This document shows positions 18,803-33,900 of a stretch of DNA of 64,000 nt, piece after piece. The stretch lies in assembly GCA_036867785.1 (NCBI GenBank), contig CP145416.1, forward strand, positions 372,001-436,000, written 5' to 3'. Position 1 is the first letter of the stretch, and every line of letters begins with the position of its first letter. This DNA comes from Plasmodiophora brassicae (taxonomy: Eukaryota). Under the pieces are notes generated by a model. That model was not told where the DNA came from and ran no database searches. It saw only the letters and a program-made list of their open reading frames with translations. The position numbers and the translations under genes were made by a program.

Positions 18803-21800
18803 ATGAGCGGAACGGTGCCGGCCGTCCTGCAGGCGGTCAACACGCTGTACTACGACCCGGACCCGGCCAAGAAGAAGCAGGCGGACCACGCGCTGAAGGA
18901 GTTCCAGAGGACGCGCGACGCCTGGCAGGTTGGGCAACGCGCTACAGGGGACGTGATGCCGATGTGCTGAGATGCGTCGTTGCGCGTAGGCGGCACACGA
19001 CATACTGGGTGCCGCGTCAGCGCCGACCGAGGCGCTCTGGTTCGCAGCGAGTACGCTGTACGCCAAAGTGTCGTCGTCGTATGGCGATCTGTCGCCGGCG
19101 GATCGCGTCCCGTTCCGCGATGCCGTCCTTCAGCATCTGTCGAAACATATCAAGGGCGTCGAGATCGTCCTGACCCAGCTGTCCCTGACTATTGCGGCCC
19201 TGGCCGTCCACATGCAGGAATGGCAGCAGCCTGTCCAGCAACTCGTTGGCCTGCTCGGTAACCGTGTGCAATCTGCCAGAAACGCGGCCGAACCTGACCA
19301 CGATATCCTGTACAGACGAAGGACGCGGCGACACGGCTGTGGCATTACTGCACATCCTGACGGTTCTCCCCGAAGAATGCGAAAGCGTGGAGAGGCGTGC
19401 CCGGCAGAGCGCGTCCGGCACCAGGGCGTCCTCGCTCTGTACATCGGTAGCGGTGCAAGTGCTTCCGCTTCTCGCAGGTGATGCTGCAATCGTGTCTCCA
19501 TGGTGCTGTCTGCCTCTGAACGGTCTACGTAGACTTCCTGCGACGAGCTCCGAACGTCAAGATCCAGCGCATGGTGCTGAGAGCATTGCTGTCCTGGGTT
19601 CGCTGCTCGTTCTCGGCGGTACCAGAATCCGCGATCCTGTCGTCGACTATCCTGGGCGACACCTTCCAGGCCGTATCGGTCCCCGATCTGGACGGCGTTG
19701 CATGCGACGTCATATCGGCGTTCATCGTGTTCGCTGACCAGTACAATCTGCCGAACCTGAACCGGTGGCTGGTCAGCGCCGTGTTCCAGCTGTGGCCGCA
19801 GTATGCCGCGCTGGTCGGCGACGACAACCGCGATACGTGCAGGAACCTTCTGCAGGTGTTCATGCAGATGGCCGAGTCGAACATCGGAACCGTCGTGGAT
19901 GAGCTGCCCCAAGGTCGACCCATTCTTCAGCTCGTCGTGAATTGCACTGCGAACCCCGACCCTGAGCTCTCCATCCTCACGTTCTCGTTCTGGTACATCC
20001 TGGCTGGAAACATGGACGCGCTGAGGAAAGGCGATAGTCAGCGTGCCGCGCGGATTGCAACGTCCTACCGGGCGGAATTCTTGAACGCGATCGATAACAT
20101 CCGAAAGATCATCGAGTATCCCGCTGATCAGGATGACGTCGGGGAGCCTGACGACGAATCGAAACGGTTCCGGTATGCAGCGGCGGACGCTCTTCTCGAT
20201 ATATCGTCGTTCTTCGACAGCTCCGCCTGCCTGGAGCACCTCGTCGAGAAGATGGAGTCGTGCATGGTCGAGTACCGGCAGAACCCGAGGCGCTGGCAGC
20301 CGCTCGAGGCATGCATGTACAGCATCAGGTCGATCGCGCGTAACGTCTCCATGGAAGGTCCTGGGCAAAGCGGCGCTCCCGGCGTCCTCGCCCGGATCAT
20401 GGCCGACCTACTGTCAATGACGTCCCATCCCCAGCTGCGCTACACGGCGACCATGATCATTGGCAGGTAAAGCGTGTTCGTGTCGCACAACGTGTTTATC
20501 GACCGTCGACTGATGCGTCCGGCGCCTGGCCAGGTACTCTGATTGGATAGCAGCAAATCCGGCAACCATTGATCCACTTCTGCGATTCGTGGTCGAGGGT
20601 CTGTCTGTAACCGGGTCGCAGGCTGCTGCTGCAATGGCGTTCAAGTTTGTGTGCGGGTCCTGTGCTGACCATCTCGCTCGGCATTCAACCGCCGCTGTCA
20701 TGCAGGTACCGAGGGCGTACTACTGCTGTGCGGCGTCGTATCGATTCACGTGCCCCGTTAGGTGTACTGCTCGATGGGCCACCTTGATATTGACGACCAG
20801 AGCGAGATCATTGAAGGCGTCTGTTCCGTCATCTGTGCCTGCCCTCAGGAATCCATCGCGGAATACTTTCGACAACTGCTTAATCCAGTGCTGAACGCGC
20901 TGTCTGTCGTTGCGCAGGCTGGCCGGGTGTCGTCGGGCTCTGTGGATCTCGGGTCGCTCGCGATCAACCTGGACCGCCTCGCTCACCTATTCCGCTCCGT
21001 CAATCCAGACTCGTGCCCGCAGCTCTGCGACATCGTCGCCAGCATGTGGCCCCTGTTGCAAGAACTGTTCAGGCAGTACTCCAGCGACGAGAAGACGATG
21101 GAGAAAGTGTGCCGCGTCCTCAAGTACTGCCTGCGGGCCACTCGCACCGAATGCCCCGTCCTCGTCGACCTGATCACCACCGTCACCCAGTTGTACCAGT
21201 CGACGCCCTGGTCGTGCTTCGTCTACATTGTCAACATCGGCGTCGAGCAATTCGATCACGTGCAGACCCGGCAAGACCTGTTCGCTCAGGCCGTCGCTCT
21301 GATCGGCACCAAGTCCTTGTCGATCCTGTCGTCGGCCGAACGAATCACCGACAACCCGGGCATCTGCGAAGACTACTTCAATCTGCTGTCCCGCTGCCTG
21401 AAGTCGCTACCGTCGGTCGTCACTGCGAGCGGCCTGCTTCAGCCGTCGTTGAGATGTGCCTCGCTCGCCATTCGCGTCCAGCATCGAGAAGCGGCGCGCG
21501 CCGTATTCGCGTTCCTGTGCAACTTCTTTGAGATTGGTACGAAGCAGGCGGAATTCAGAAGGTGACTTGAGGACCGCCCATGTTCGTCAGCGCACCCGTT
21601 TGATACTTTGGCGCAGCGGCATTGCATCGATCGTCGAGCAAGAAGGCGCCTCCTTGTTCCAGGCCCTGATATCTCACCTGCTGGAGGACCTGTCGAAGAA
21701 CCGCCTGCTGGACCTCGCTAGGGTCATCCGGCTAGCGATATCTTTCGATCGGAACGTCGCAGGACGTTTCCTACATCACGCGCTCGAATGGTACATTGTG

Positions 21801-21983
21801 CAGCAACGACTGACCTTCCTTTGTGACCTGTTCGTTGACAACGTCGTGAACAGCCTACCGGCATCCGTGCCAGGACGCGCCGAGTTCGAGGCGAACCTAT
21901 TGTCGGCCATGCATCCGGAGGCGCAACGGGACGCCGTTCTCAGGTTCGAGAACGAGTACCATGCCAGCTTGTCATTGCTCTAG
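18803..21983 (+). CDS. TNPO3: Transportin-3/Transportin-SR (importin-beta family)
   Basis: VLQAVNTLYYDPDPAKKKQADHALKEFQRTRDAWQ, VLTQLSLTIAALA, LHILTVLPEE, WQPLEACMY, HPQLRYT..IGRYSDWI; multi-exon. Confidence 0.88.
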
Positions 21984-22122
21984 CAGATGTATCTACATAG
22001 GCAGGAAGTCTCTAATACAACGTCACCATCGACCGGAACCTGTCGCGCCGAGCGGATAGGACAGGCGTCGCCGAAGAACGCGCACAGAACGGGAGGAGTG
22101 TATATAATCACGACACGCTATG

Positions 22123-22704
22123 CTAACGAGACGTTTGTGCGGTCAGCTTCGACGTCGCCGCTCTCGCCGACGCTGATGCCACCCGGATGTCTGACAGCGT
22201 GTGCCGACGTAACGTGGAGCGGCGATCTTCGAGCAGTTTCGGCAGGTCCAGCGACTCCATGCCCCGCAGCCATTGCAAACGTTCCGCCTCGCTGATCGGC
22301 TCGATCCTTTGCGACGACGATGGCGACCAGCCAAGTTGCCGTAGGAATGCCTCCTCTTCGAGGGACGACCCGTTCTGCGGACAGGATGGCGGCGGAGGCG
22401 CAGGGGACGGGCTTCTCTCCTCAGCCATGGGCACCTCGAATGTCTTGTCTCTAACCGGGTGCCGTCGGGGACTACCCGGCGGTGATGTCGCGGCCCGATC
22501 CCGCGTCGCCGCTTCCCTCTCCAAGTGACCGCTCTCATCGATCGGTGTCGAGCACCCGATCGCGATCGCGACGAACACGCACGACACGACGAGCAATATC
22601 CAGGCGGCCGCCGACATCAGCCCCGACAGCAACGACAGCATGATCGTCTCGGACATGCGGGCGGCGTTCTTCGCAACAGATCCACCAATGATAGCCAGCT
22701 GCAT
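22123..22704 (-). CDS. Hypothetical protein with an N-terminal TM helix and Pro/Ser-rich region
   Basis: Open frame with a hydrophobic segment (LLSGLMSAAAWILLVVSCVFVAIAIG) and the motif SLEEEAFLRQLGW..PISEAE; start uncertain. Confidence 0.5.
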   Translation of the reverse strand: MQLAIIGGSVAKNAARMSETIMLSLLSGLMSAAAWILLVVSCVFVAIAIGCSTPIDESGHLEREAATRDRAATSPPGSPRRHPVRDKTFEVPMAEERSPSPAPPPPSCPQNGSSLEEEAFLRQLGWSPSSSQRIEPISEAERLQWLRGMESLDLPKLLEDRRSTLRRHTLSDIRVASASARAATSKLTAQTSR

Positions 22705-22865
22705 AAAAATGGCCCGCCACGGACTCCGCGTGAAGTTTCCCACACTGCGCCTATTTCGGGATTCACGAATCGCGCTCCGTGTCTGCCCCTCCTGTGCGAC
22801 CTGAAGCAATCGGCCGCGTCATTCCGCGCGCGAGCGCGCGCATTTCCTGTATCCTGCGCCCATAT

Positions 22866-23576
22866 TCACATGACCGCTGGGGAACCGTCCGTGCAGATCA
22901 TGTCATCGCGGAACCCCTTGTGGACGACGTTGATGTCGAGCTGGACGGTGCCGGTGGAGACGGTCCGTTCTCGCCATCGTTCGGCGCCGTCCATCACGAC
23001 GGTCTTGTCGGCGTACTGAGGGTACCCGCCGACAAATTTGGCGGACAGGTCGTCGGTCAACGATCCCCGTGGCCGGAACGTCGCGATGGTCAGCGTGGTT
23101 CTGCCGAGGCGTGCTGGAAGATAGCAGAACCCGTACCCAGCTGCGGATTCGCTCAGACACCAACGCATCCCTGTCTCGGCGCCGACGTACCGAAATCAAT
23201 TCGGTCGTCATCGTCGAGGAAGAACAGTTCGATGAAGAATTTGGGCCAACCAAGGAGGCCGGTGCACGAGAAGCAGACGTCGACGGGATGGTTCCAGCAC
23301 GCATACGTCGTATTCTGCAAGCGACCAGTATCATGTGCTGTCGTGCAGGACGTTCGCACATGCCCACCTCATCGGGGATGGAACTGAACGTGCGGCCACG
23401 AACGGACCCGCGAATGACCTTCCATTGTGCGTTGTCGCTCTCGATGGCGAACTTCCCGAAGACCGCCTTCCCCTTAAACCCCGATGCACCGACGATGCTC
23501 CCAATGAAGTGGACTGCAGGAGCATCCCGTCAGGCCACGAACAGGCGGAATCGCCCCTCCACTGACCTTCGGGCAT
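22866..23576 (-). CDS. B9D2: B9 domain ciliary transition-zone protein B9D2
   Basis: Spliced MPEVHFIGSIVGASG, WNHPVDV..GLLGWPK, AGYGFCYLP, FVGGYPQY, TVSTGTVQLDINVVHKGF. Confidence 0.9.
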
Positions 23577-23742
23577 CGTTGCCCGTTGTCACGGTCTGAG
23601 GCCGCACCGCTTCCGGGTGGGCTGTTGAAGGCTGCGCCCTCCCCAGCTGCTAATTGGTTATTATCCCACAGCCATACGATTCGGCGCTTGGAATGTACCG
23701 CGCCCGTTTGAATCTTCGGCCGACAGCATACGCGTATGTTGC

Positions 23743-23923
23743 GATGTCGTGGTCACAGAGAATGTCGAGCCTGGAGGTCGCCGTCATGGTGCTCTGGTTC
23801 CTGTTCGTCGGCTGCCTGACCCTGCTCGGATGCTGCTTCTTCCTCGTCGAACGCCTCCGGGGCGCCCACAACGTCCACCTGCTCGAGGTCCCGGACGACA
23901 CCCAGCACCCAGCCCAGTTATAA
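23743..23923 (+). CDS. Small single-pass membrane protein (hypothetical)
   Basis: Short ORF with a strong hydrophobic helix VAVMVLWFLFVGCLTLLGCCFFLV and coding-like GC3. Confidence 0.35.
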
Positions 23924-24081
23924 CAACCTACTTCCCCGACGGCCCCGTCACCCAATTACAACCCCCAGTTGGCACCAAACGGAATCACCACCGGCGCTCT
24001 GGACAGAGCTAAGAATAGCATTTGCGGATCTGCGCAGCGCCTGCGGCCATCGCGGCCAGCAGCCGTACGAAGTAGGGACGG

Positions 24082-25693
24082 ATGTGCAGCGGCGATCCGG
24101 TCCCTGGTGGCGCGCAGCACGCTCACGCCGAGTCGGGGTCGTCGCCCGCCCGGAAGCGGCGTCGTGAATGCCCGCACCTGGTTCGCGGCATGCATGTGAA
24201 TAACGTGCAGCCGGGCGGGAACGCGTTCGCGTTTGCCGGCGGGCAGCAGCGCCGTCTGGCCGGCCTGGGGCAGCTGAGCGTCCTGACGGACGAGCTGCTG
24301 CTGGACGTCTGGCGGTTCCTGTCCATGGAATCGGTGGCGCGCCTCTCCTGCCTGTCATACTTTGCGTATGCCCTCAGCGAGCACGACGATTTGTGGCGAA
24401 CGCTCGTGCTGCGCGAGGCGCCTGCACACCTCGACTTTGACTCGTCATGGAAGTACGTTAGCGGATTCCACCGGCATCGTCCATTTCCGTTCTGAACCAG
24501 CCGTACGTAGGCAGACCTACGTGACGTCCACGGGATGCACTGTTCGTCTCGTGCCACTGAAACTGACCGGCGTCTTCTCTGACGCATTGTTCCAACCCTG
24601 GTAGGGCCTCCCTGTGCCACACTCCATCGCACTGGTTGCTGATTCAGTTGACGTAGGCTGAATGCGACTCGTGACATATCGTCGCGATGGTTGTTGAATT
24701 CAACGATCGATCGGCGATCTGCCGATGACCTGTCCGTTGACGAGTTCATCGGCAAGTACGAACGGCCGAACGTTCCCGTTGTCATCACCGACGTTGTCAA
24801 CCGCTGGCCGGCGTTCACGAAGTGGACGCCCGAGTACCTGTCGGACACGTTCGCCGACACGCCCGTGAACGTCCAAGTCATCGACATGACGATGCGGTCG
24901 TTCTGGACGTACGCGGCGCAGTCGACGGACGAGACGCCATTGTACATGTTCGAGAAGGCGTTCGCCGACAAGGCGCCGTCCCTGGCCGACGACTTCGCCG
25001 TGCCCATCTACTTCCGTGACGACCTGTTCGAGCTTCTTGGTGCCGACCGTCCCGACCACCGGTGGATGGTGGCCGGCCCAGAACGGTACACCCGTCGGGC
25101 GGACGCTGCGTTCGAATGCTAATCTGGACGGCAGGTCGGGGTCCACGTTCCATCAGGATCCAAACTCGACGTCGGCGTGGAACGCGGTGATCACCGGGCG
25201 AAAGAAATGGATCATGTACCCGAAGGAATGCGTTCCGCCCGGCGTGTGCCCTTCCGAGGACGGTGCCGAGGTCGTTACGCCGTTGTCGCTCATGGAATGG
25301 TTCTCGACGTTCTACATGGAGACGCAACAGCCTGGGGCACCCCAGCCGCTCGAGGTGATCGTGGAGCCCGGCGAGGTGATCTTCGTCCCCAACGGATGGT
25401 GGCACTGTGTCCTGAACCTGGAGCCGTCGATCGCCATCACCCAGAACTTCGTGTCACCCAGGAACCTCCTCAACGTCCTCCGGTTCGCCAACGACAACCC
25501 CGACCTGGTGTCTGGATACCGAGGTGACACGCCGCTCGGACAACGCCTGGCCGATGAGGTCAACCGAACCCATCCGGGGCTGATCGACCAGCTTCGGAGC
25601 CAGGACCAATCGGCACGGAAGCGCCCTGCCTCGGTCTGGGCAGCGTGCACTGCAGGCGTCGACACGGCACCGTTCGCGTTCTGCTTCGAATAA
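24082..25693 (+). CDS. F-box + JmjC protein (JMJD6/JMJ22-like)
   Basis: F-box LSVLTDELLLDVWRFL..DDLWR; JmjC RPDHRWMVAGPERSGSTFHQDPN..AWNAVITGRKKW and FVPNGWWHCVLNLE. Confidence 0.9.
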
Positions 25694-25808
25694 ACAGTAG
25701 ACCATCGTCATTAAGTGTGATAAACGAAAAGAGAAAGGAAACCTTTATCGAAGAGAGAGGGAATGCTGAATGCACAGAGTGTACATGATGTTGTCAACGC
25801 AGGACACC

Positions 25809-27371
25809 TTAGGCCTTGGTGCCAGTGGCGGTGCCCAGCTCGACAGACCTGAGCGGCTCCTCCTGTTCCTTGACCTTCTGGTTGTAGAGATTGCCGAGCG
25901 ACACGGTACCGTACGTCCAGGTGCCGACCATGACGACGAGAAGCGCGACGAGCACCTCGACGATCGCACCGACTTCCTTGGTGGAGAAGCACGCCAGCAG
26001 CATGATCTGCAGGAACCCACCGCCCGACTTGCCGAGACGGGCGCCGACAACGTCGACGGCAGCCTTGGCTCGGCCACGATCCTCGCCGAGCGGGATGAAC
26101 GACATCTCTTTGGTCGGGTCGAAGAACGAGTACTTGCAGGACTTGGAGATAACGACGGCAATGTAGCCCAGGGCGACCAGGACGGCGGCGGGGCAGAACG
26201 AGAAGTACTTCTCGAGCATGAAGAGGCCCATGAACGGGATACCGACCGAGATGATGGACACCGGGGAGATCAGCGCCGTCTTCGTCCAGCCGATGCCACG
26301 GACAGCCTTGCCACCGACGAAAATCAGCAGGCACAAGGCGACAACACCGGTACCCAGCGAGAACGACCCGGTGAACATGAGCTTGTGGCCACGGTTCGGG
26401 AAGTAGTTCTTCCAGCTCTCCTTGTAGTAGACCTCGACAAAGTTGACAGAGATCCCGTACATGATGACCATGACGCCGATGAAGAAGACGTATCGCGACG
26501 TGAAGATGACCTTGAGACCTTCGGTGAACCCGAGCTTGACCTTCTTCTTCTTGCCGCCCGACTCGCTCTCCTGCTTGCACAGGCGCGGGTCATTCAGGAC
26601 GTTCTTCTGCATCCAGCGGTAGATACCGATGATGACGCAGCCGAAGAAGCACACCAGGCCCATCAGCAGGTACATGGCATCGCCGCCGGACGACTTCTTG
26701 GACTTGTCGTCGCTGGAAAGTGCACCCATCGTGATCAGGATCAGGCCGCAGAAGATCAGGGAGAAATTCGCGCCAATGTTGAACAGCGTGTAGAATCGCT
26801 TGGCCTCATCGGTACGGCAGATGTCGTTGGCGTATCCCCAGAAGAGGAGCGACAGGACGACACTGCCCCACAGTTCCGACATGACATACAGAAGCGCGGT
26901 CGACCAGTGGGCAACAATCATCATGACGGGTGCCAGGAACTGCGGGAACGTCGAGTTCGGGTCGCCGAGGACAGGCTTGCCGCTCTTCTGGGCGTTCGCG
27001 ATGTCCTGCTCGCTCGGCTTGATGTACGGGCTAACCCACTCGTCACCCGGCTCGATCTTGTCCTGAAGCGGGTACAGGACGGCGCCGTACAGGGCGAAGA
27101 ACCCGACGAAGAACGTCATCCAGGAGTAGAAGATGTTGGGCTTCGACATCTTCAGCGACATCTTGGTGTAGACAAGCATGACGATGATGGACGCGGGCAG
27201 CGTGAACACCAGCTTCAGGTACAGGATCGCGGAGGTCGCCATGGACTCGAGGACGAGGACATCCTTCAGGTCGCGCAGCAGCGTGTAGTTGAAGCAGATC
27301 AGGAACATCATGAGGACCATGGGAACCACCTTCTTGTTCTCATGGGGTTCGACCGGCCAAAGCGAACCCAT
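25809..27371 (-). CDS. TLC/NTT-family ATP/ADP (nucleotide) translocase
   Basis: Intronless, ~520 aa, ~12 TM. Motifs FNYTLLRDLKD, SELWGSVVLSLLFWGYANDI, EAKRFY, NFVEVYYK, KYSFFDPTKEMSFIPL, KAAVDVVGARLGKSGG. Confidence 0.95.
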   Translation of the reverse strand: MGSLWPVEPHENKKVVPMVLMMFLICFNYTLLRDLKDVLVLESMATSAILYLKLVFTLPASIIVMLVYTKMSLKMSKPNIFYSWMTFFVGFFALYGAVLYPLQDKIEPGDEWVSPYIKPSEQDIANAQKSGKPVLGDPNSTFPQFLAPVMMIVAHWSTALLYVMSELWGSVVLSLLFWGYANDICRTDEAKRFYTLFNIGANFSLIFCGLILITMGALSSDDKSKKSSGGDAMYLLMGLVCFFGCVIIGIYRWMQKNVLNDPRLCKQESESGGKKKKVKLGFTEGLKVIFTSRYVFFIGVMVIMYGISVNFVEVYYKESWKNYFPNRGHKLMFTGSFSLGTGVVALCLLIFVGGKAVRGIGWTKTALISPVSIISVGIPFMGLFMLEKYFSFCPAAVLVALGYIAVVISKSCKYSFFDPTKEMSFIPLGEDRGRAKAAVDVVGARLGKSGGGFLQIMLLACFSTKEVGAIVEVLVALLVVMVGTWTYGTVSLGNLYNQKVKEQEEPLRSVELGTATGTKA

Positions 27372-27479
27372 GGTTACGAGCGGACACTCGGAAAGAGGAA
27401 TGCAGTCCGGCGGACCCCGTGTGGTGGTGCAGCTCACCCACGGGGGCGACGGACTCCGTGACGGAGTTCCCTCCGACGG

Positions 27480-27487
27480 ATATATAT
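27480..27487 (-). promoter_or_regulatory. Possible TATA-like element upstream of the NTT gene
   Basis: atatatat run about 110 nt upstream of the ATG at 27371, in otherwise GC-rich DNA. Confidence 0.3.
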
Positions 27488-28048
27488 GCACCGGCCCCTA
27501 ATATTATTCCTGGACCAGCACACGGCGTCCGTTCCGGTCCAGATCACCTCAGGTTGTTGACTGTTGTCACCAGGCGTATATTATTAGAACACCTCCTCCG
27601 GATGACTCGCAAGACGTCGCGCGTCCACGGGGGCGCGACCTGTATCGGTGCGAGTGCCCAGGTGGGTGATGCGCAGGACGAGGGACAGGCAGGGCTACAC
27701 CGAATTGGGTGGAAACACGGTCGTCAAACGACGCGCATCGTCGCGAACAGAGGGCGTCGTCTGTTACGCATCCGCCGGCGCTCGGGTGCGGCCCTACTCG
27801 CATGACTGCCCTGGACCGATGCGCGGGCCTCCTGAACAAGAGCGCCCTGCCGTAAGGGAAGTGACCGCCGACAGAGACCTGGGCAATCGTGTCGGCCGCA
27901 GCCATGGCCTAATCATGGGCGCCTGGGCCGGGAGCCTATCGAGACTCAGACTTCAACACTACGTGCCGAGGTCGACATAGGGGTCCTAGCGAACGGCATA
28001 GGGGATAGCAGTACCCGTGTGCCGCCAAGCTGAGCGAATCTACAGTCG

Positions 28049-29569
28049 TCATGGCTTATTATCGCTCGGTTTGAACATGACGACGCGGAAGACGCTGTCG
28101 AGGGCGCGCCCGTTGAGCGCCAGCGCCCAGGCGAGCGTCCACCCCTGAGGGGACAGGAAATAGTCGTACGCCAGCGCGATGATGATGGCGCCGGTGCAGT
28201 ACAGGATCATGGACAGGGCTAGGCCCAACGTGCAGAACGCCATTCGCCGGAACACGCCGTTGATCTGGTCGTCGCGAATCGGCTTGTCGTCCGTGCAACA
28301 TCCGGCGGCGCCGTTCCCTGGGACGACCTTGTTGCCCGGTGTGGATCGGTTCTCGCGAATCGACGCGCTCGTCTCACGAAAGAACAGCAGCACACCGTAC
28401 AGCAGATGGCACCCGACCGTGAACTGGAGAATGACCTCGGCGCCGGCCATGAGCTCCTCCTGAATACCTGGTTTCGTGAGGGTGGCCTCGACGGCGGAGA
28501 ACCCCAGATCGGTCAGGACGACCGCGATGCACGTCCCGGTCAGCACGTTCGGGTAGTCGCCCCTGAGAACGCGCGTGATCATCGACGACCTGTGGCCGGG
28601 GACGATGGAGAACAGCTTCTTGTACCACATGGAGGCGGCCAGGAGCGAACAGGCGAACCCGAACCCGGACAGGCCTGGCGCGAAGAAGTAATGGACCCGG
28701 GGGGGCACGTTGGCCGTCGAGTACCAACCGCCAATGGCAATGACGAGCGCCAGGAGCGTCGAGGTGATGGCCTCGATCAGCAGGACGACGTGGACCGCCG
28801 AGATGCGCCTCGACAGCGAGACGGACGGCATCGAGCATCGGCGATTCGGGGATCGGTCCCGCACGATACGCTGGCGGACGATGAGCGCATGGCGAACGAG
28901 GAACACGCCGGCGGCGCAGCCGGCGCCCAGCAGCAGGGCGCTGGGTATGACACGCACGAACAGCAGGTAGTACCACGAGGCGAACATCGGGGCCCAGGCG
29001 TTCGTATCGGGCGACACCGACGCGGTCAGGTTCGTCGTCGACCGCATGCTGGCGAGCAGCGGGTCGCCGACGCCGACCACCACCATCAGCATCGAACGCG
29101 GACGAGGATCCGGGACGTGGTCGAGCAAGTTCGTCTTGTACCCGGGAAGCGCCCCGACCTCCCGCTCTGCATCCAAGGCCGGCGCTCAGCGGACGCGCGT
29201 TGTTCCCCACGCGAACCCGGGCTTACTCAGCAGGGCCAGGGTGCCCTTGTCGTCGAAGAGCGAGTACAGGCGCGTGTACGAGCAGGCGGTCGTGCCGCTG
29301 GTCAGCAGGACGGCCTTGCCGTGGACGACGGCGGCGTCAACGACGACGCCGCCGTCGCACGGGTCGCCGTCGAGTATGACCAGCGGCAGCGTAATTGCTG
29401 GGCGCCCGTCTTCCGGCTGCCACCCGAGGTACTGTGACGCCGCCAGGCACGGTAGGCTGACGTTGACGATCGCGCCGTCGGACAGCACCGAGACGTCCAT
29501 CCGTGCCCATGTGGCCCCGAGCAGCAGGATCGAGGCGGCGCCCCACAGGCCGGCCGCGTGCGGCCCCAT
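28049..29569 (-). CDS. Signal peptide + PA-like ectodomain + ~7TM membrane protein (GPCR-like)
   Basis: Signal peptide; DPCDG..VHGKAVLL..CSY..GTLALL resembles a PA domain. Intron ~29168-29226 (GTAAGC..TGCAG) joins it to an ORF with about 7 hydrophobic helices. Confidence 0.6.
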
Positions 29570-29742
29570 GAGCGGTGTCTGTCGCGGCGCGTTCGCGCCT
29601 TAACGTAAGGAAATGATCGCGATCGACCTGCGCGCTCACTTAAGGGCGGCCACCTCGTTATGGCGTCACTGCGAGCGACGGGTACCTGGCCTGGACTGAT
29701 GCGATGCATTTTATCATCGACTGAGACGCCTCATCTGACACA

Positions 29743-29758
29743 GGGGGGGGGGGGGGGG
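29743..29758 (+). repeat. G16 homopolymer in a divergent intergenic region
   Basis: Sixteen consecutive G. Confidence 0.9.
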
Positions 29759-29838
29759 CGACAAAGGTGCCGCTGGAACGTCGTACCCAGTCCCAGAGCC
29801 ACAGTGGAGCGAGTGGCACCGCCGCCCTACCCGTTGCA

Positions 29839-30897
29839 ATGGCGGCGTCATCGGCGAACGCGAATGCGACCGACAAGCACGACGGCAACGAGTACCTGGA
29901 GCGATCCGGCGTCGGCGTCTACATCCAGGACGCGCTGACGTTGCTGCTGGAGAACCGCCCCGAGCATCCGATCATGTTCCTCGTCGAATAGTACGTCCGC
30001 GTGCAGGCCACGCGCGAGCACACCTGAAGCGAACGTGATGTGCTGCACAGCTTCCAGGCGGCCGACAAGGTATCGTCGCCGCTGTCCAGGGCCTATCGGT
30101 ACATACGGATGACGCCCCGAGGCCGCCCTGCCTATCTGCCGAATCTCGCGTCGGCGTTCACCGTGCTGAACACGATGAGAAGTCATTCAGACCCGTTATG
30201 CGCCGCCGTTCGGCGTCTCTCTAACATCCTGGCTGTCGTACAGGCGGCCAGCGACCATGCGGGTTGACCGGGCGAGAGCTGACGAAACTGTTATACCTCC
30301 TGTCGAACGAGTTCCCCGTTGACGTCGTCGTCCCACTCATGCGGGTACGATCGCTCAGCTGACCCTGCTCTGGGCGCTTGGCTCTGACTGGCGCGCCCCC
30401 AGAGATTACGAAAGTTCGATTCCGACCTGATCGATATCCCTACGTTCACAGCGGCGATCAACGCGTGCTTGATCTATGAAGGTGTGTGTTTGTGCCGTCA
30501 TGCGTCTCTCGCAGGTGGCACGCATGCCACTGAACGACCGGCGTGCAACAGAGTTGTTCGACAAGCTTGAATGGCTGTTTAAGGGGTGCGACCCGCAGTC
30601 GACCGGGATGATCACGAGGGACAGGTTCGCCGAGATCGTCCAGGTCATGGAACTCGACGGCGACTGCAGGAAGCGGTACCGTCTGGCGATATGCCATCCG
30701 GGGATTTCCACAGCTGAACGGTGCCCTCGCTCAGTATCGCTAGCGGGAAACGTGACGACCCCGCCGGGAAGGCGGTGCTGACCTACCGGCAGTTCCTGTC
30801 AGCCATGCTCCAACTGGTCGACCTCCCGATGACCACGTTGGAGACGGATGCCGACCCGTCCGGTCAGCAGCAGCAGCAGCAGCAGCAGCAGTCATAA
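29839..30897 (+). CDS. TPGS1: Tubulin polyglutamylase complex subunit 1-like
   Basis: R2D2-like EYLERSGVGVYIQDALTLLLENRPEHPIMFLVEY, then LSRAYRYIRMTP..YLPNLASAF; ends in Q9-S-stop. Confidence 0.65.
30865..30891 (+). repeat. (CAG)9 trinucleotide repeat (C-terminal polyQ)
   Basis: Nine CAG units immediately before TCA TAA. Confidence 0.9.
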
Positions 30898-30948
30898 CGC
30901 TCATGGCTATACAATGTGTATTGGCGTCAAGCATCAAGGACTGTCCGA

Positions 30949-33900
30949 TCAGAAATTTTCCTAACGTTCGCCAACAGTGTCAGACCCGGTTCACGACGCG
31001 GCGAAGGCGCCGGAATCACCTTGTGAAGGCGGAAGAACGTCTTGGAATTGATGCTGCTGTAGCGAGCACATTGCAATCGCAGGTCTTTGGCGATGAACGG
31101 GTTGCCACAGTAGGCCACACCGATGTCGTTGGCGGCATGCCGGGTGGCGACCGTCTCGAAGTGTTCGTCCCAGTTCGGGCGCCCGTTATGTACGTGGATG
31201 TTGCCGAGTACGGTGGTCGCCTTCGGCGGGCACTTCAGCAGCATCAGCATCTGCATCTCGTCCCAGGGCGCTCGGACCCGCATGACGTTGTCGTCGAGGT
31301 TGCGCGGGCCCCAGAACTTGTCGTCGTCGACCACCTGGACCCGCACAGAGAGTCAGACCAGGTGGGCGACGTTCACAGGGACACCGTCGCCCAGGCACCG
31401 CAGTTGGTTTCGGAGCCGGGCAGTTGGCCGGCACCGACGTCACGAAGATGTGGAACTCGAACGTCTTTGTCCTGGCGATCTCGGGGTTGGCCGCCCACAG
31501 GTTGTGCGCCTACAGACGGTCGAATCAGGCGGCGCCGCTACGAGGGCAACGTGATCACCAGGTGACCTCGTCATCGACGGATTTCAGCATGCGGATGAAC
31601 CAGCGGAACGAGTCCAGTTCCTTGTACGCCACGACAAAGTAGAAGTAGGCGTGGTCGGGATACGAGCGCCCGATGCTGAACTTCCATCTGCAGCGGCAAC
31701 CTTATTACCGATCAGCGGCACGGTTTCGTACGCGTCGCCCCTACCGATAGTGGACGATGCTCTTCACAGTGGCGCACACGGGCGTCACCCCGATACCTGC
31801 GCCGATGACCATCGCGATCAGGTACTCGGAGACGTGCTGGGTCGGTGCGGAATGTGGCCCATAGACTCGAAACAGTTTGCGACCGTCTGGGCCGACGACT
31901 TTGCCGCGGCCGCGCGTCAGGTCGTTGTTGTTGACGAACGAGGCGAAGGACGCCCTGGCGGGCATCAGCATGGAGCAATAATCTGCCAAACGGGCCGTCC
32001 AGCTGGATCCGTCCTCCTGGCCCAGCACACGAATATGAACAGTGACATCCTGCTCTTGCGGCGCCGATGATATCGTAAACTATACGGGGCGGGGCGTTCG
32101 CCGGTCAGTGCATGAACGACAGCGCGGGGCAATACACACATACAGGGTGCCATTCGCCGACAGAGATATGGGGTGCGTTCAGGAACAGGTACTGGCCTTC
32201 TTTGTATCCGTTCGGGAACGCCGATTTCCTGTCAAATGCAAGGGCGATGACGTTACCTATCGCAGGAGGTTAAAGGGCACGCGATGGCGACGAAGCCAGC
32301 AGAAAGGACCCATGTTTGTAATGCTGGTGAGGGCGACGGTTCGGTACGCCGAAGACGCGCGGTAGATGCGCTCGAGGATGTAGATGGGCACGGTGATGAT
32401 CAAGCCCTTCCAGACGTTGCGATTGAACCCACCGCGCCCGTGGGGGATCAGCAGGACAAAGAACCCGATGAAGAAGTGGTGACTGTACCAGAAGATCTGC
32501 AAACAGCATTTGAGTCGGGCAGGGCCCAATGGCTGTCGCCCAGACTCACCTCGAAGTGGTGGTTCTTGACGTTGGCCGGAGCGGCCCCGTACATAAACAT
32601 CATGCAGATGAAGATACCGACGCCAGTCGTCCAGGGCCAGATCCCGTAAAACTGCCAGGTGTAATCCGGCGACAGACCGTAATTGACCAGGTGGGCCAGC
32701 GTGTGCATGACGCCGGCGAACAGCACCAGCCAGGCAACCATCTTGTGGAATTCCAGCGCCTTGTCAAGTGGAATGAACGCGAGTACGCGTCGAAGGATCC
32801 GCTGTGATCGTGTCTGCGTTGAAAGGCCTCTCTAAGCACAGCCTCTAACATTCGTTGCACGGGGGCACAGACCTGGGATTGGGTGGACAGATCGTACAGG
32901 TACCGTATGAACGTGCGACAGACAGGAAGCAGGATGAGAGCACAGTTGAAGTCGAGAACACCACCCCAGGCCTTCGCCCAGGCGACGAACTGCGAGGCGG
33001 CGAAGTTCGCTGGCATGGCGTCGATCGCCTGGAACCAGACGAACAAGACGTAAAAGAAGATTGCTGCGTTCGCGCCGATCCACAGCAGCAGCCAGACGAA
33101 CTCCCCGACTTGGTTATCTTCCCTGATCTTAGTCAGAAACCCACGGCTCCGTTTCTACGATGCGGACGACGCTCAGCCTGCGTTTAAAGTAGGAGACGCA
33201 CAATCGGACCTTGCCAGAGGTCCCATCAGATGCACTGGCGGGCTTCTTGCGGGACTCTTGAACAAACACTTCGCTCTTCAGGGACGAGTGCATGTGGGCA
33301 GCCGCCGTCAGCACCAACATCACGCCTGGGACCAGGGTCGTGATCGAGAAGACGGTCGGGACGGCGAGTCTGAACACTTGACATGAGCACACAAAGGCGA
33401 CGAACAACGGCGTGGTCCAACAGACACAGTGTAAATGATGGAGCGCCACGGGAAGTTGGTCGGCGACCTTCTCGTCCACCGGGCTTCGTAGATTGTTATC
33501 CCGGTGCCGATGACACTGCCCAGGGTGAAGTCAGCCAGCGACCGTTGCAGTAGTTCGGCAGACAAACATGGCGTAGATGTCGACAACGAGATCGATGAAT
33601 TTGAACAACGGCGCACCACCAGCGGCGAGCCAGTAGAACGCAACGGTGCCGGCACCGATAAGGCTCAAAGAGCATCCGACGGTCATGTTGCTTGCCCACA
33701 TGCCGAATCGCGTCTGCGAGTTTCTGAGCTCAGCGGCGGGGCCGACAACTTCAAGAGCGCCGCCCGCGTCCTGCTCAATACGCAACGACTGCGTATCCGA
33801 CCTATCAGCCGTCAGTCTGGGCACAAATGGGCATGGCAGCGACGTGACGCAGACCTCAGCGCGACGAAATCGCTCGGGAAGAACCCGCATTTGTAAGGGG

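Follow-up and report, generated by a model that had tools for sequence, protein, structure and literature searches.

A 64,000-nucleotide stretch of the Plasmodiophora brassicae genome (GCA_036867785.1, contig CP145416.1, positions 372,001 to 436,000 of the forward strand), referred to below as the window, was found to contain a single locus (n = 1) encoding an ATP/ADP translocase of the NTT/TLC family. The open reading frame (ORF) occupies window positions 25809–27371 on the minus strand and runs from an ATG through 520 codons to a TAA stop in a single exon. This gene model was supported by the frame itself, by a codon check, by the Pfam match and by unspliced RNA-like contigs. The Pfam TLC profile PF03219 matched with 430.4 bits (cutoff 21, E 1.3e-128) and the NCBIfam profile TIGR00769, with 392 bits, only narrowly cleared its cutoff of 387.2. 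The protein exceeded the full-length profile thresholds of the NTT/TLC family (TC 2.A.12), and the family membership that a first-pass annotation had read from the sequence was confirmed.

The finding is real and was correctly read, but it has been known since 2017. Two NTTs of P. brassicae, grouped with those of Microsporidia and Rozella, were already reported by Major et al. (2017; PMC5381601), and the novelty implied by the first-pass annotation does not hold. No functional follow-up to the 2017 report was found in the literature searched. Our study contributes proof of the gene model at the level of transcripts, the mapping of residues on structures of 2025, a loop insert, independent duplications and two environmental relatives. 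The value of the present work lies in confirmation and not in discovery: the gene has no hidden targeting exon, is transcribed, is chromosomal and keeps the catalytic residues.

Transcript and N-terminus of the NTT gene

Among the public runs, 20 of the 24 listed, from 11 studies, were found to contain 50% or more of the words sampled from 25500–28000; none was recorded as RNA. Four runs (X1, X3, X6 and X15) were aligned over window positions 21000–33000. The runs X1, X3 and X6, from three different studies, were judged to be RNA-derived solely from GT..AG joints (CT..AC on the minus strand) that were absent in X15, whereas X15 was read as DNA of another strain, with no such joints, a near-continuous cover and about 1% of positions different. 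Contig depths were not used for ranking expression.

The neighbouring genes contained splice joints at 21559/21615, 21789/21853, 23140/23191, 23314/23368, 23513/23567, 23646/23699, 24452/24511, 24599/24656, 25084/25134 and 31331/31396, together with five joints within 29990–30734. All of these skip 49–70 nucleotides, follow GT..AG (or CT..AC) and are missing from the DNA-like X15. None of the 15 joints listed was present between 25134 and 29990 (ten less-supported joints stand outside this list). The NTT gene was covered by unbroken RNA-like contigs: record 21 of X6 (1687 letters) was fully accounted for by 25743–27387 and sequencing adapters at both ends, record 3 of X1 was continuous across 25134–27385 and record 16 of X3 spanned 25755–27087. 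The NTT gene is therefore transcribed without splicing, and its description as an intronless gene among intron-rich neighbours is now carried by transcript contigs, beyond the reading frames alone.

The start codon was found in a favourable context (A at position −3, G at position +4). It was preceded by a 5′ untranslated region (UTR) of about 14–16 nucleotides (27372–27387, minus strand), as given by the contig ends of X1 at 27385 and X6 at 27387, the latter adapter-joined. The 3′ UTR of about 55–66 nucleotides (25743–25808, minus strand) was bounded by the adapter-joined contig start of X6 at 25743 and that of X3 at 25755, and converges on the 3′ end of a JmjC gene.

The first-pass annotation had stated that the protein starts directly at the conserved core and lacks a plastid transit peptide, and both statements agreed with our results. 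The protein begins four residues ahead of the conserved W-P and was 10–12 residues shorter than six chlamydial homologues in the alignment; the phytomyxid relatives P0002, P0003 and P0005 share this core start. In-frame stops were present 43 and 45 codons upstream of the ATG, and from these stops to the start the frame holds no other ATG. The 677-nucleotide upstream spacer has seven ATGs, and the frames that begin at them all terminate short of the NTT coding sequence. RNA-like contigs of the upstream gene reach down to about 27632 (X1) and 27713 (X3), which narrows the spacer to a promoter-containing segment between the two transcripts (27388–27631, minus strand) with no coding exon. No joint in the RNA-like contigs connects the spacer to the NTT gene, and the contig depth was far lower in the spacer than on the gene. 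An upstream coding exon was sought in the RNA-like contigs and in the upstream frames, and none was found; an N-terminal organelle-targeting extension of the plastid type is absent from the window NTT.

Two further observations were made at the 5′ end. One X1 contig carried 29 extra letters at 27385–27387, beyond the adapter-joined end of X6, with no match in the window at up to three mismatches. The junction is not on a clean AG acceptor, and the tip is therefore probably a chimera rather than a product of trans-splicing, a leader sequence being formally possible. The protein P0121 (560 amino acids), which shares a 90% cluster with the window protein, was 40 residues longer, in the same frame, from an in-frame GTG. 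This extension is artefactual: it stems from a prokaryotic gene caller applied to eukaryotic contigs, and it could lead predictions of targeting peptides astray.

Composition and chromosomal residence

The NTT ORF showed a GC content of 0.515, 0.373 and 0.881 at the first, second and third codon positions (GC1, GC2 and GC3), respectively. The open frames of the neighbours (16 exon segments) mostly ranged from 0.68 to 0.90 in GC3, and the adjacent upstream ORF had 0.879. The strong GC3 bias noted in the first-pass annotation was thus measured, but it does not set the NTT gene apart: it is a property of the genome, and the gene is compositionally native. The similar GC3 of the gene and its neighbours argues that the gene has long resided in the genome and is no recent arrival. 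The GC content of the window (0.587) matched the 59.4% published for P. brassicae (PMC10245619), and the intron size in the window agreed with that published for this species.

The DNA-like contigs of X15 bridge 24820–26208 and 26562–32742 and so cover the NTT gene and both flanks. One X1 contig joins the spliced exons of the JmjC gene to the NTT gene through their convergent 3′ ends. The NTT gene is a native, single-exon nuclear gene of the plasmodiophorid, physically linked to intron-bearing eukaryotic genes. Contamination and chimeric assembly, for which reads across the flanks had been proposed as a check, were both excluded by the flank-bridging contigs of the strain diverged by about 1%.

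Predicted fold, conserved residues and loop insert

The AlphaFold2 (AF2) model, built from a 50-row alignment, had a pLDDT of 87.9, a pTM of 0.88 and 12 long helices, in agreement with the hydropathy profile. The top five Foldseek matches were the five CpNTT1/AtNTT1 entries (TMq 0.64–0.82), followed by generic transporters of the major facilitator superfamily (MFS) at 0.59 or less. The modelled fold is the 12-helix MFS-like fold of the solved NTT structures.

The motifs named in the first-pass annotation were all present in the ORF: MGSLWPVEPHENKK at residues 1–14, RDLKD at 33–37, SELWG at 165–169, FVEVYYK at 311–317 and GKSGG at 447–451. In the Arabidopsis protein AtNTT1, the residues K155, E245, E385 and K527 are reported to be important for ATP transport (PMC4256464, PMC10654386). 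All four residues are fitted if the 9j3j chain is offset by a constant 84 from the numbering of the AtNTT1 precursor. In the window protein they correspond to K53 (27213–27215) in YLKLVF, outside RDLKD, followed by E166 (26874–26876) in SELWG, E313 (26433–26435) in FVEVYYK and K448 (26028–26030) in GKSGG, all on the minus strand. Three of the four internal motifs thus contain an ATP-transport residue, and all four residues were invariant in 12 of 12 and in 50 of 50 aligned sequences.

A phytomyxid-specific loop insert was found between helices 3 and 4 at residues ~110–141 (26949–27044, minus strand), with about 23–32 extra residues. The insert was unaligned against CpNTT1, gapped in AtNTT1 and absent from six chlamydial rows and from Rozella. 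It was modelled with a pLDDT of 83–92 and short helices. Since the Lys/Arg-rich loop at residues 258–281 marks the cytoplasmic side, the predicted position of the insert is on the outer, non-cytoplasmic face.

Comparison with known NTTs and phylogeny

The homologues were listed as the best 120 of 1952 significant matches among 7999 scored candidates. Among the matches listed, the closest non-self protein was P. brassicae PBRA_005004 (72% identity), followed by a protein of Spongospora subterranea (59%) and two UniParc-only proteins (50% and 48%). The remaining matches listed had 42% identity or less, and those with names were chlamydial, with a synthetic Rozella/Microsporidia ancestor as the one exception. 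Besides the window's own protein, a single named P. brassicae cluster stood among the matches listed. A search with this synthetic ancestor (P0076) returned Rozella as the only eukaryote among the named rows, the other 118 rows being unnamed or chlamydial.

PBRA_005004 (CEO96333.1 / A0A0G4IMD2; P0002) aligned over 99% of the length and was sister to the window protein. It shares the core start, the loop insert and the four charged residues with the window NTT, but it is a distinct locus outside the window. The two proteins are most likely paralogues, namely the pair of Plasmodiophora NTTs described by Major et al. (2017; PMC5381601). The RaNTT1 of Rozella allomycis (P0199) was found in one clade with the phytomyxids in every tree made, with an identity of only 41–43%. 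RaNTT1 differs in having about 85 residues inserted ahead of helix 10, an N-terminus extended by about 40 residues and no phytomyxid loop insert. Rozella and P. brassicae are both endoparasites that keep respiration, and the host lineage of the window NTT, the Rhizaria, is unrelated to Fungi.

The NTT1 of Chlamydia pneumoniae (CpNTT1; PDB 9j3n/9j3o) showed 37–38% identity, a TMq of 0.80 to the model and the same motif set. The chlamydial Npt1-type exchangers differ from the window NTT in 10–12 more N-terminal residues, the lack of the loop insert and a W instead of the Y in VEVxWK. The Arabidopsis AtNTT1/AATP1 (PDB 9j3j/9j3l/9j3m) had 35% identity and a TMq of 0.81–0.82 to the ATP- and ADP/Pi-bound states, and its K155, E245, E385 and K527 are all kept. 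AtNTT1 bears an N-terminal plastid-targeting extension, with which the offset of 84 is consistent, whereas the window NTT has none. Chlamydial NTT1 scored 340 bits against 269 bits for AtNTT1, and the E-values were 2.8e-100 for CpNTT1 (9j3n) and 1.1e-78 for AtNTT1 (9j3j).

Of the 318 rows in the first tree, 238 were stored proteins and the other 80 were translated from bacterial loci; the tree did not include P0076, P0121 or P0122. All trees were made without microsporidian or plastid NTTs and without PDB chains, and the microsporidian placement rests on PMC5381601, in which the phytomyxid NTTs are reported to group with those of Microsporidia and Rozella with bootstrap values of 92 and 100. 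In the FastTree analysis of 318 rows, the five phytomyxid rows and Rozella formed a clade with a support of 100, and the same clade was found in a FastTree of 197 rows. The 312 bacterial rows were thinned to 44 at below 66% identity for a 50-row IQ-TREE analysis under LG+C20+F+G4. In this tree the window protein and P0002 were joined with a support of 96/81, the five phytomyxids with 100/98 and the phytomyxids and Rozella with 100/99. The three sequences of the Spongospora side (P0003–P0005) formed a group of their own (100/99), and the separate Plasmodiophora and Spongospora groupings make the duplications look lineage-specific. With regard to the phylogeny proposed as a check by the first-pass annotation, the grouping with Rozella apart from the bacterial rows is suggested by the support of 100/99, and its microsporidian part comes from PMC5381601.

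The attachment of the clade to the bacterial backbone had a support of 64/41, and no bacterial donor was singled out. When either Rozella or the phytomyxids were left out, the remaining partner was attached at the same region of the backbone, adjoining a Parachlamydiaceae/Rickettsiaceae/Azosocius trio that holds the longest bacterial branches. The common place of attachment speaks for the clade, while the long branches at that place leave long-branch attraction as a possible cause. In 13 alignment columns, a residue common to the five phytomyxids and Rozella was rare (below 5%) among the 312 bacterial rows; at Y316 all 312 bacteria had W and at R432 all 312 had K. Rozella shared 18 of 302 rare residues, which is only modestly above the 0–6 of 76–139 found for six long bacterial rows.

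A HMMER scan run exhaustively over 1.84 billion representatives returned 2751 relatives, with the phytomyxid cluster at 535 bits, the next match at 328 bits and Rozella third. Of the 148 new representatives, 147 were added to the tree and one shorter than 350 amino acids was dropped. Two environmental metagenome proteins, P0393 (532 amino acids) and P0308 (509 amino acids), were found to join Rozella beside the phytomyxid NTTs. In a quick LG+C20 tree of 58 rows with full-length cluster mates, the resulting clade of eight rows had an SH-aLRT of 100; the labels printed after re-rooting of this tree were not trusted for the question of the donor. P0393 was observed to share several signature residues (E8, the NDIC motif and NFVEIFYK) with the phytomyxid NTTs. 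Uncultured endoparasites, rozellid-like or other, are a possible source of both proteins.

The results support a bacterial, chlamydia-like origin of the gene, which has since become native to a chromosome of a eukaryote. The horizontal acquisition suggested by the first-pass annotation fits these results, as the NTT groups with Rozella within a bacterial family dominated by chlamydiae and the flanks are eukaryotic. We may tentatively suggest, as a scenario that is possible but on balance doubtful, that the phytomyxid and Rozella/microsporidian NTTs, together with P0393 and P0308, go back to one transfer from a bacterium to a eukaryote and a subsequent passage between unrelated endoparasites (Rhizaria and the Rozella/Microsporidia line). 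In this scenario the gene would have been duplicated independently in Plasmodiophora and Spongospora, and the structured, acidic, host-facing loop of about 23–32 residues would have been gained, adapting the transporter to the plant cytosol. In a paper of 2023, NTT is reported to be absent from mikrocytid rhizarians (PMC10245619).

Proposed function and alternative explanations

In Chlamydiae, Rickettsiales and Microsporidia, energy parasitism classically relies on NTTs. Plasmodiophorids, to which the host of the window NTT belongs, are plastid-less, obligate intracellular plant parasites, in line with the apparently plastid-less intracellular parasite that had been supposed. By analogy with its relatives, the window NTT is probably, though by no means certainly, a parasite-surface ATP/ADP exchanger that tops up energy from the host cytosol. 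The protein would insert by its own transmembrane helices into the plasmodial membrane facing the host cytosol and would exchange host ATP for parasite ADP (and phosphate), like RaNTT1 and the NTT1 proteins of chlamydiae and plastids; the imported ATP would supplement, not replace, the parasite's own production. RaNTT1 is reported to carry only ATP and ADP and to act as an exchanger, and Rozella to keep an electron transport chain (PMC5923384). P. brassicae is reported to keep complete glycolysis and the tricarboxylic acid (TCA) cycle (PMC4815078). An exchanger in a respiring endoparasite, together with the glycolysis and TCA cycle of P. brassicae, makes ATP/ADP exchange the best reading of the gene. 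The presence of an NTT in the clubroot lineage suggests that a plant endoparasite that is still respiring also draws host ATP.

Several points weigh against this proposal. The plasma-membrane location and the nucleotide transport are both suggested from relatives, and no transport assay or localisation of any phytomyxid NTT was found in the literature searched. The substrate range is described as not predictable from NTT sequence (PMC4256464), the NTT4 of Simkania is reported to have failed to transport nucleotides (PMC5381601), and some microsporidian NTTs are described as having become net symporters (PMC5923384). The diatom PtNTT5 is placed on the endoplasmic reticulum (ER) (PMC5381601), i.e., some eukaryotic NTTs are found on internal membranes. 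With its own glycolysis and TCA cycle, the parasite is not obliged to import ATP. Rozella forms a long branch (2.28), and the trees were built without microsporidian and plastid sequences.

The main rival is a protein at the same surface that acts as a net importer by proton-coupled symport, or as a broader transporter of purines, pyrimidines or NAD+, feeding the nucleotide pools. ThNTT4, EbNTT1 and EbNTT2 are reported to have become symporters independently, and microsporidian NTTs to carry GTP and NAD+ (PMC5923384). The lineage-specific paralogues of the phytomyxids (the window NTT and P0002; P0003–P0005) correspond to the setting in which such specialisation came about in Microsporidia, and the limited predictability of substrates from sequence (PMC4256464) also leaves room for it. 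However, the nearest characterised relative, RaNTT1, is specific for ATP and ADP and exchange is described as ancestral (PMC5923384), all four residues of ATP/ADP exchange are retained in the window NTT, and no passage on a loss of nucleotide synthesis was found in two genome papers (the word "purine" occurs 0 times in each). Such an importer is considered unlikely. Next to it stands an NTT on one of the parasite's internal membranes (ER, mitochondrion or other), which would supply ATP to that compartment and leave the host pools untouched; one Encephalitozoon NTT is mitosomal, and a missing cleavable presequence alone does not fix the destination of a polytopic protein. The diatom PtNTT5 is reported at the ER and at the outermost membrane (PMC5381601). 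The diatom NTTs that serve organelles are, however, all described with N-terminal extensions (PMC5381601), whereas the window NTT has none, and the characterised members of the endoparasite clade are reported to be mostly surface-located (PMC4256464, PMC6699826). An internal location appears more improbable still.

The other two explanations have almost no probability left. A gene from outside the parasite genome, through chlamydial contamination or chimeric assembly, might be suspected because the close relatives outside the phytomyxids are bacteria throughout, for the most part Chlamydiae, and the gene has no introns. This was refuted by the X15 contigs that bridge the gene to intron-bearing genes on both flanks. 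The RNA-like contig linking it to the spliced JmjC exons and the GC3 of 0.88, matching that of the neighbours, also speak against it, as does an identity of at most 42% to any bacterial protein against 72% and 59% to two plasmodiophorid proteins among the matches listed. Similarly, a plastid-type NTT with a targeting peptide on an unseen upstream exon is hardly credible. Nothing was found in its favour; AtNTT1 is a clear homologue with 35% identity. The X6 contig is wholly explained by 25743–27387 and adapters, no joint is present and the spacer depth is far lower; the higher score of chlamydial NTT1, the clustering with Rozella and the equal core start of P0002, P0003 and P0005 also stand against it. 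With its gene model, transcription, chromosomal place and catalytic residues confirmed, the window NTT lends itself well to transport assays and to localisation, and it could serve as a parasite-specific target without a counterpart at the plant cell surface.

Neighbouring genes and strain differences

The convergent neighbour of the NTT gene is a JmjC/cupin-8 gene on the plus strand (24051–25703; PF13621, PF02373) with at least three short introns, at the joints 24452/24511, 24599/24656 and 25084/25134. The stop codons of the JmjC (plus strand) and NTT (minus strand) genes were found 115 nucleotides apart (window 25693–25811), and their 3′ UTRs abut or overlap. "Overlapping UTRs" are reported for P. 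brassicae (PMC4815078), and the bridging X1 contig agrees with this. The other neighbours identified by Pfam were a transportin-3/importin-13 fragment with short introns, a CBM21 protein, a short-chain dehydrogenase/reductase (SDR) and a multicopper oxidase.

On the same strand as the NTT gene and upstream of it, an orphan ORF of 347 amino acids (28049–29092, minus strand) was covered by RNA-like contigs. It had no Pfam match, and its only match among 6420 scored candidates was the window's own protein, a result that would fit P. brassicae without proving it. The NCBI-sourced product in its cluster has only 133 amino acids, yet an RNA-like contig is unbroken over 28007–29426; the deposited model of this ORF may be too short.

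The X15 strain was found to lack seven letters at 27555, in the spacer upstream of the NTT gene. Loose ends of 137–255 letters were present at 29078, 29338–29340 and 22328, at the same places in the RNA-like (X3, X6) and the DNA-like (X15) contigs, which suggests strain-variable segments or a local difference of assembly.

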